DNA of 45,230 nucleotides from a virus (taxonomy: Duplodnaviria; Heunggongvirae; Uroviricota; Caudoviricetes). The position numbers and the translations under genes were made by a program. Where the stretch lies: the IMG/VR virus record IMGVR_UViG_2718218139_000011. One strand, written 5' to 3'. The stretch's first letter is position 1; each line of letters begins with the position of its first letter. Of the stretch, positions 43,421-45,230 are shown one piece after another. The notes below the pieces were generated by a model. That model made no database searches. It was not told the DNA's origin and was given only the letters and a program-made list of their open reading frames with translations.

Positions 43421-43492
43421 TGAGGTAGCCTGAGTTTAACGGACACTCCTTCCTGAAATAGAATGGCATCAGAAGGAGCTAATAATGAGCAG
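43421..43492 (+). mobile_element. Solo 72-bp IS600 left-end fragment, tandem to copy 2
   Basis: Identical to the first 72 bp of the IS (left inverted repeat through the first 8 nt of orfA), followed directly by a complete copy. Confidence 0.85.
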
Positions 43493-43556
43493 TGAGGTAG
43501 CCTGAGTTTAACGGACACTCCTTCCTGAAATAGAATGGCATCAGAAGGAGCTAATA

Positions 43557-43859
43557 ATGAGCAGAAAAACCCAACGTTACTCTAAAGAGTTCAAAGCCGA
43601 AGCTGTCAGAACGGTTCTTGAAAATCAACTTTCGATCAGTGAAGGCGCTTCCCGATTATCTCTTCCTGAAGGCACTTTAGGACAATGGGTTACCGCCGCC
43701 AGAAAAGGGCTCGGTACTCCTGGTTCCCGCACGGTGGCTGAACTGGAATCTGAAATTCTGCAACTGCGTAAGGCGTTAAATGAAGCTCGCCTTGAGCGAG
43801 ATATATTAAAAAAAGCAACAGCGTATTTTGCACAGGAGTCGCTGAAAAATACGCGTTAA
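43557..43859 (+). CDS. IS600 OrfA (copy 2)
   Basis: Identical 100-aa translation to copy 1. Confidence 0.9.
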   Translation: MSRKTQRYSKEFKAEAVRTVLENQLSISEGASRLSLPEGTLGQWVTAARKGLGTPGSRTVAELESEILQLRKALNEARLERDILKKATAYFAQESLKNTR

Positions 43860-43894
43860 TCGAACAATGGCGACAACAATTTCCCATTGAAGCG

Positions 43895-44713
43895 ATGTGT
43901 CAGGTATTTGGTGTATCCAGGAGCGGTTATTACAACTGGGTACAGCATGAACCCTCAGACAGAAAACAAAGTGATGAGCGGCTAAAACTGGAGATTAAGG
44001 TGGCACATATCCGCACTCGCGAAACATATGGAACCCGGCGGCTCCAGACGGAGCTGGCAGAGAATGGCATCATCGTTGGTCGTGACCGACTGGCACGTCT
44101 TCGTAAGGAGCTAAGGCTACGCTGTAAGCAGAAACGCAAGTTCAGAGCGACTACGAACTCGAACCACAATCTGCCAGTTGCGCCAAATCTGCTGAACCAG
44201 ACGTTCGCTCCTACAGCACCAAATCAGGTCTGGGTGGCGGACCTGACGTATGTTGCCACACAGGAGGGATGGTTGTACCTCGCTGGCATCAAAGATGTTT
44301 ATACGTGCGAAATTGTCGGCTACGCCATGGGAGAGCGCATGACAAAAGAGCTGACAGGTAAAGCCCTGTTTATGGCGCTCAGGAGCCAGCGCCCACCTGC
44401 CGGGCTAATCCACCACTCTGATCGAGGTTCACAGTACTGCGCATACGATTACCGGGTCATACAGGAGCAGTTTGGTCTGAAAACATCAATGTCGCGTAAA
44501 GGTAACTGTTACGACAACGCTCCGATGGAAAGCTTCTGGGGAACGCTGAAAAATGAGAGCCTGAGCCACTATCGTTTTAATAACCGGGATGAAGCCATCT
44601 CAGTAATACGGGAATACATTGAGATTTTCTACAATCGTCAGCGTCGTCACTCTCGTCTGGGGAATATCTCCCCGGCAGCCTTCAGGGAAAAATATCATCA
44701 GATGGCTGCTTAA
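43895..44713 (+). CDS. IS600 OrfB (copy 2)
   Basis: Identical 272-aa translation to copy 1. Confidence 0.9.
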   Translation: MCQVFGVSRSGYYNWVQHEPSDRKQSDERLKLEIKVAHIRTRETYGTRRLQTELAENGIIVGRDRLARLRKELRLRCKQKRKFRATTNSNHNLPVAPNLLNQTFAPTAPNQVWVADLTYVATQEGWLYLAGIKDVYTCEIVGYAMGERMTKELTGKALFMALRSQRPPAGLIHHSDRGSQYCAYDYRVIQEQFGLKTSMSRKGNCYDNAPMESFWGTLKNESLSHYRFNNRDEAISVIREYIEIFYNRQRRHSRLGNISPAAFREKYHQMAA

Positions 44714-44756
44714 AAAAAGAACAAATGGTAGTGTCCGCTATTGCCAGTACACCTCA

Positions 44757-45230
44757 CAGGGCTTTACCTGTCAGCTCTTTTGTCATGCGCTCTCCCATGG
44801 CGTAGCCGACAATTTCGCACGTATAAACATCTTTGATGCCAGCGAGGTACAACCATCCCTCCTGTGTGGCAACATACGTCAGGTCCGCCACCCAGACCTG
44901 ATTTGGTGCTGTAGGAGCGAACGTCTGGTTCAGCAGATTTGGCGCAACTGGCAGATTGTGGTTCGAGTTCGTAGTCGCTCTGAACTTGCGTTTCTGCTTA
45001 CAGCGTAGCCTTAGCTCCTTACGAAGACGTGCCAGTCGGTCACGACCAACGATGATGCCATTCTCTGCCAGCTCCGTCTGGAGCCGCCGGGTTCCATATG
45101 TTTCGCGAGTGCGGATATGTGCCACCTTAATCTCCAGTTTTAGCCGCTCATCACTTTGTTTTCTGTCTGAGGGTTCATGCTGTACCCAGTTGTAATAACC
45201 GCTCCTGGATACACCAAATACCTGACACAT
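44757..45230 (-). mobile_element. Inverted internal IS600 fragment (orfB codons 1-158), running off the window edge
   Basis: Reverse complement of copy-1 coordinates 1697..2170, abutting the right end of copy 2; window ends at the orfB ATG. Confidence 0.85.

Follow-up and report, generated by a model that had tools for sequence, protein, structure and literature searches.

A cluster of IS600 sequences occupies the right end of the lambdoid prophage described here. It looks like a genuine pile-up, in which the element jumped into its own copies, a piece of it was flipped, and the integrase end of the prophage was deleted. To the reading that a real IS600 cluster, formed by nested insertions, inversion and deletion, has replaced the integrase end of a prophage integrated at serT we assign a probability of about 0.8. 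The window, i.e. the whole stretch of DNA analysed (45,230 bp), maps to approximately 965,335-1,010,564 (about 0.965-1.011 Mb) within the 5,199,239-bp contig PVMG01000001.1 (GCA_003015325.1). The contig was found via two proteins created by the junctions, a 72-aa exonuclease remnant and a 158-aa OrfB remnant, both of which it encodes. The source locus on this contig (L006) corresponds in its positions 1-12021 to positions 33210-45230 of the window, with 12,021 of 12,021 bases matching. Position 1 of the window is the ATG of a gene encoding EspF repeats, and the right edge, 45230, is the ATG of a truncated orfB call. The window thus ends at gene-call boundaries and not at a contig end, and the main argument by which a sequence-only reading had favoured a contig-end artefact falls: the site lies about 1.0 Mb inside a 5.2-Mb contig, and the sequence runs on to yccA and as far as helD. 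Beyond the window another 2.2 kb of IS600 sequence are found, followed by unique chromosomal DNA of the yccA side in the reference gene order.

The sequence-only reading had reported a solo 72-bp IS600 left end, a full copy and an inverted piece starting in the middle of orfB, and was right as to both coordinates and content. In the list below, P is the resident IS600 to which the inverted piece belongs.

43210 to 43420, forward strand: exonuclease remnant (exo'), 70 codons of the 5' end, YdfE_N PF27430 / RecE-like, cut after ...CCCGCCCTG
43421 to 43492, forward strand: solo IS600 left end, IS positions 1-72, with IRL and the orfA start codon, ending in CAG (70-72)
43493 to 44756, forward strand: complete IS600 copy A, 1264 bp, IRL at 43493-43519 and IRR at 44730-44756
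43557 to 43859, forward strand: orfA of copy A, 100 aa, HTH_Tnp_1 (E=1.5e-20)
43895 to 44713, forward strand: orfB of copy A, 272 aa, HTH_21, rve (E=3.2e-26), rve_3 and rve_2, DDE transposase core
44757 to 45230, reverse strand: inverted fragment of P running from IS position 876 to 403 and holding orfB codons 1-158, for which the adjacent IRR provides the stop
1295 to 2558, forward strand: third IS600 copy, a simple insertion identical to copy A, with a CGG duplication, in a tail-fibre gene at the other prophage end

The ORF called at 43210-43428 (72 aa) closes with V-R-stop, for which the IS600 tip provides the codons. Intact homologues of the exonuclease are 816-827 aa long, and in strain PEC240 the uninterrupted target reads ...CCCGCCCTG / CTCTCGATT. 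The solo left end is the left part of P, split by another IS600. Together with the start of copy A it forms a 72-nt tandem repeat (43420-43491 and 43492-43563, 100% identical). Replication slippage was considered as a source of this repeat and rejected, as the boundary falls exactly on the IS tip and the flanking homology is only 1 nt. The segment 44756-45230 is the perfect reverse complement of 43895-44369 (IS positions 403-877), the A at 44756 being common with the IS end. The inverted piece of P extends past the window to IS position 70, and spans 807 bp in total, 474 of which are inside the window. The order at the source locus is: exo' (70 codons), IS600 1-72, 1-1264 forward (copy A), 876-70 inverted, 1264-1 inverted (copy C), and the serT-yccA spacer. 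The full cluster consists of 3,407 bp of IS600 sequence located 135 bp upstream of yccA, and the window holds its left two-thirds. The junctions, with a slash at the point of joining (rc, reverse complement), are the following.

exo' to IRL: ...CCCGCCCTG / TGAGGTAG
72 to IRL: ...GAGCAG / TGAGGTAG
IRR to rc876: ...CACCTCA / CAGGGCTTT
rc70 to rcIRR: ...TTTTTCTG / TGAGGTGT (on the other strand, IRR / CAG AAAAA)
rcIRL to chromosome: ...CCTCA / TTGCTTAATG

All the junctions of the cluster fall exactly on IS600 tips. A CAG stands on either side of copy A (43490-43492 and 44757-44759), and the earlier statement that no target duplication lies between the full copy and the inverted piece is in this respect not strictly true. 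Both halves of P have been kept, 1-72 on the left and 70-876 in inverted form, and each carries the CAG at 70-72. This matches an insertion of IS600 at 70-72 in the same orientation, but the two junctions now lie on opposite strands. Two sequence variants were observed: copy C (L006 12355-13618) has A changed to G at IS position 62, near its yccA-side end, relative to the other copies, and IS position 873 is C in all the copies of the source genome and T in five STEC reference copies.

The element is IS600 by every feature tested, i.e. length, repeats, orfA/orfB with the A-run, identity and 3-bp duplication. IS600 belongs to the IS3 family, is 1264 bp long, and was first described in Shigella sonnei. 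Copy A has the same length (1264 bp), and its terminal repeats are imperfect, IRL reading TGAGGTAGCCTGAG...GGACACT and IRR AGTGTCC...CACCTCA (inverted ends TGAGGTAGCC... and ...CACCTCA). An A7G slippery run at 43808-43815 is the programmed -1 frameshift site, and near-identical (99.9%) IS600 copies carry the RefSeq label 'programmed frameshift'. Copy A is 100% identical to the copy at 1295-2558, which served as a reference for canonical insertion within the same genome, and 99.92% identical (1 mismatch in 1264, at position 873) to five copies annotated in RefSeq as 'IS3-like element IS600 family'. Target duplications of 3 bp were found in seven of seven simple IS600 copies (CGG, CTC, GTA, CAC, TGG, CTG, GTC); literature searches on IS600 target-site duplication, and for the assembly accessions, returned nothing. 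Copy C has no matching triplets (CAA vs CAG), as expected where a rearrangement has changed the flank. In sum, the element here shares with IS600 the length, the repeats starting with TGAGGT, the HTH_Tnp_1 and rve ORFs, the A7G site and the 3-bp duplications, and only the arrangement of the copies is unusual.

The sequence GCCCTG stands immediately before the IS tip both at the exonuclease target (43415-43421) and at the orfB target, IS positions 871-876 (44363-44369; reverse complement 44756-44762). Its presence at both targets accounts for the detection of a terminal inverted repeat that reaches 6 nt past the IS. Four of the targets within the cluster or close to it have a C(A/T)G triplet. 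The pattern may, if only anecdotally, reflect a target preference of IS600. The prophage exonuclease (ydfE/RecE-like) gene is repeatedly interrupted by IS600 in several STEC lineages, at different sites (L003 5884, L004 5565, L005 4071, L023 about 3290-4550), and the site in the O121 exonuclease gene is a CTG located 15 bp upstream of the site in the source genome.

To the left of the window, hyaA-F and serT, an intact tRNA-Ser(UGA) gene, are found on the source contig. On the right of the cluster follow yccA, tusE, yccX, rlmI, hspQ and further genes up to helD, arranged and oriented as they are in L018, a prophage-free genome. Since the flanking order of serT and yccA matches the latter, the prophage occupies the serT site, in a locus collinear with the reference. 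For the early region, the complete genome most closely related is that of strain PEC240 (L025; 98.2-98.6% identity). Its right arm is intact, the exonuclease gene (827 aa) being followed by a DUF4224 excisionase-like gene, the integrase and then yccA. The alignment to PEC240 proceeds to L025 position 12436 and resumes at 16288, and the 3,851 bp in between (12437-16287) are missing from the source genome. The lost DNA begins directly behind ...CCCGCCCTG of the exonuclease gene and ends 70 bp past the attR derived from serT; it takes in the exonuclease 3' part, the DUF4224 gene, the integrase and attR. No tRNA gene is left on the right side of the prophage, serT being intact only on the left. 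Collinear flanks, and a missing segment which begins at an IS terminus, suggest an IS-mediated deletion of the prophage end. As to the right prophage boundary, which had been deemed unreliable, the native one is indeed absent, 3.85 kb with int and attR being missing; the boundary now present is well defined. The right end of the prophage is therefore an IS600 scar and not a native att site, a result of value chiefly for annotation.

The IS600 copy at 1295-2558 cuts the tail-fibre gene near its 3' end, and the product, 437 aa long in relatives, is here a 405-aa protein with an IS-encoded tail. A 407-aa version of this ORF with a GTG start was not on record; the 405-aa version starting with ATG was found. 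The prophage is thus damaged at both ends and, lacking int, xis and attR and with an IS600-interrupted tail-fibre gene, is presumably fixed in the chromosome. The prophage also carries an effector gene: positions 1-753 of the window encode a 250-aa EspF-repeat protein (Pfam EspF, E=5.5e-109), similar to the type III effector TccP/EspFu. In other STEC this gene adjoins hyaA-serT, or stands behind a tandem prophage (L019-L024).

An order of events, and the enzymology behind them, can be proposed from the anatomy. A first IS600, P, would have entered the exonuclease gene at ...GCCCTG. A second copy, oriented like P, may then have entered it at 70-72 and duplicated CAG, which produced the 72-bp tandem left end, and a further copy, oppositely oriented, may have entered P at 874-876 (CTG). 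The 807-bp piece of P between two inverted copies would have been subsequently flipped by homologous recombination between the copies; alternatively, the latter two steps could represent a single intramolecular transposition of the inversion type. Finally, the DNA between the left end of copy C and a point 70 bp past serT would have been lost, either by IS-mediated adjacent deletion or by recombination with another IS600. With it would have gone IS positions 874-1264 of P, 2.3 kb of the exonuclease gene, the genes for the DUF4224 excisionase-like protein and the integrase, and attR. Nesting by itself does not account for the structure: at site 70-72 both junctions are found with CAG, but on opposite strands (window 43490-43493, L006 12352-12355), and at site 874-876 there is one junction only, so that inversion and deletion must be added. 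Of the two real events that had been envisaged earlier, a nested insertion or an IS-mediated inversion scar, both are thus required. The partner junction, IRL joined to P 874 and following bases, is absent, and the insertion at 874-876 is deduced from a single junction. Against the proposed history also counts that it would demand 4-6 events within one 1.3-kb target.

The same structure could be obtained in another order, with copy A as the latest arrival. Copy A would have entered an older scar as a simple insertion, CAG being truly duplicated; in that scar, IS positions 1-72 would have been fused to the inverted 873-70 segment, 72 and rc873 being joined through a common CAG. Copy A is in fact the sole rearranged copy with matching 3-bp flanks (CAG and CAG), a coincidence expected by chance at about 1/64. 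Yet, nested insertion followed by a flip also predicts both CAGs, the targets being CAG (70-72) and CTG (874-876), and the scar, 72 fused to rc873 by 3-bp microhomology, needs an extra, non-canonical event. A late arrival of copy A is thus regarded as unlikely.

The proposed succession of nested insertions, flip and deletion may be compared with a second assembly of the locus. A short contig from GCA_002486255.1 (L007) is 100% identical to window 35271-43498 over 8,228 bp, with no mismatch. Its positions 8151-8299, equivalent to the window from 43421 onward, read exo' joined to IS600 1-72, and then an inverted IS600 right end (GAGCAG / TGAGGTGTAC...); the contig ends 77 nt later. The solo 72-bp left end is hence confirmed in a separate assembly, which leaves the inner 2,071 bp unconfirmed. 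The window and L007 structures differ by exactly 2,071 bp, from the IRL tip of copy A to the IRR tip of copy C, and the segment has a 7-bp direct repeat, GTGAGGT, at its ends. A single deletion converts the window type into the L007 type, and no single event was found for the reverse. As the L007 junction could not be built from k-mers of the window structure, the two structures appear to be two real states.

The difference could mean that the array is unstable, or that two isolates of one lineage have been sequenced. Long inverted repeats are known to be unstable, and a loss of 2,071 bp would fit with that. IS600 is amplified in (non-O157) STEC, where the IS-excision enhancer (IEE) is reported to promote the excision of IS3-family elements and the deletion of flanking DNA (Kusumoto et al. 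2011, cited in PMC9397093). The 2,071-bp loss would also fit an excision or flank deletion promoted by IEE. That the cluster is live and unstable, with ongoing excision driven by transposase and IEE or by palindromes, and that self-targeting of IS600 builds nested arrays, is a tentative extension with the odds somewhat against it.

One may ask whether the L007 type, exo' / 1-72 / inverted IS600, is the ancestral form, having arisen when an adjacent deletion ran from an inverted IS600 at yccA into the CAG at 70-72 of P, the window type being derived from it. The L007 type needs only three events, and its flanks are 100% identical to those of the window. Nevertheless, no known single event was found that would put the block made of IS600 1-1264 plus inverted 876-70 between position 72 and the inverted IRR, and flip and deletion isomers worked out by hand gave no route in that direction, so that a derivation of the window structure from an L007-type one was rejected on this basis. 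The reverse direction takes a single 2,071-bp deletion between the GTGAGGT repeats at two IS tips. An ancestral L007 type is accordingly rated as distinctly improbable.

Is the whole structure an assembly artefact, i.e. did a repeat-induced mis-join, or a fold-back at a contig end, make the tandem end and the inverted piece? IS600 is multi-copy (three complete copies and two fragments lie in about 47 kb), L007 departs after IS position 72 in spite of identical flanks, and the junctions are absent from all the other complete E. coli genomes compared. Against this stands that the site is deep in a 5.2-Mb contig, with both flanks unique and correctly ordered. Moreover, mis-joins at repeats stay in homologous sequence and in register, while at three junctions (72 / 1, 1264 / rc876, rc70 / rc1264) the very tip of an IS meets a non-homologous position, the overlap being 1 nt at most, and the CAG/CTG triplets are placed as target duplications. 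Joins of IS termini to non-homologous internal positions cannot be yielded by repeat collapse, and the repeat-induced assembly join suggested earlier is not supported. The junction in L007 also falls precisely on an IS tip, and k-mers of the window structure could not produce it. An artefact is thus very improbable. In addition, a second contig larger than 1 Mb, which may or may not represent an independent assembly, encodes all three junction-specific proteins. Non-homologous junctions lying exactly at IS termini, combined with 3-bp repeats, are able to separate real IS rearrangements from repeat-collapse artefacts with no need for reads. Programs calling prophage boundaries, and short-read assemblies, will mis-handle the IS600 cluster locus.

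The cluster was searched for in other genomes by using four junction 54-mers, J-i (GCATCAGAAGGAGCTAATAATGAGCAGTGAGGTAGCCTGAGTTTAACGGACACT), J-ii (TCTTTAGAGTAACGTTGGGTTTTTCTGTGAGGTGTACTGGCAATAGCGGACACT), J-iii, of the L007 type (GCATCAGAAGGAGCTAATAATGAGCAGTGAGGTGTACTGGCAATAGCGGACACT), and J-iv (AGTGTCCGCTATTGCCAGTACACCTCACAGGGCTTTACCTGTCAGCTCTTTTGT). None of the four junctions is present in 5,426 complete E. coli genomes, where only IS ends plus a few chance bases matched. In the complete E. coli genomes, no locus was retrieved by the right-junction query with a coverage of at least 80%, and none of the 5,426 has an IS600 at the site upstream of yccA. Both the junctions and the yccA-site IS600 being absent from these genomes, the arrangement is specific to the source lineage. 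An exact scan for the 72 / IRL junction in a collection of contigs with one genome per species gave 0 matches, which says little given that sampling, and a phage collection contained ordinary IS600 copies only, none covering over 51% of the query. Matches to the 158-aa OrfB remnant in nine further loci (L009-L017) were discarded as junction evidence, since they are short contigs ending at IS position 876/877, with no stop, and reflect a selection effect of the exact-length search. The end-point at IS600 876/877, common to many contigs from short-read assemblies and metagenomes, is mostly due to selection by the exact look-up, though it recurs in unrelated samples. Four of the nine have in common an IS30-like insertion at position 324.

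Self-nested IS600 copies are found elsewhere. Two complete STEC genomes, RM6927 (L001) and 97-3250 (L002), carry, like the source genome, a complete IS600 inside an inverted IS600 orfB, and in both, as here, the right end of the inner copy abuts the inverted N-terminal part of the outer one. They differ because both outer halves flank the inner copy, and the triplet is duplicated (616-618 in L001, about 720-722 in L002). In the source cluster, by contrast, a 72-bp left end in direct orientation lies on the left, and the outer fragment stops at 70 against a full copy. An insertion point at 874-876 is found in none of the 5,426 complete E. coli genomes. With IS-mediated inversion and adjacent deletion, and with flank deletion of the IEE type, the cluster shares end-points located at IS termini and the loss of flanking DNA, in this case 3,851 bp of prophage. 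As in IEE-type deletion, two IS tips bound the 2,071 bp by which the two near-identical assemblies differ, a likeness drawn from sequence comparison. The arrangement combines known processes, namely self-nested insertion, inversion between inverted copies and IS-associated deletion, and events of this type are already known, and ordinary for the IS-rich genomes of pathogenic E. coli, STEC and Shigella.
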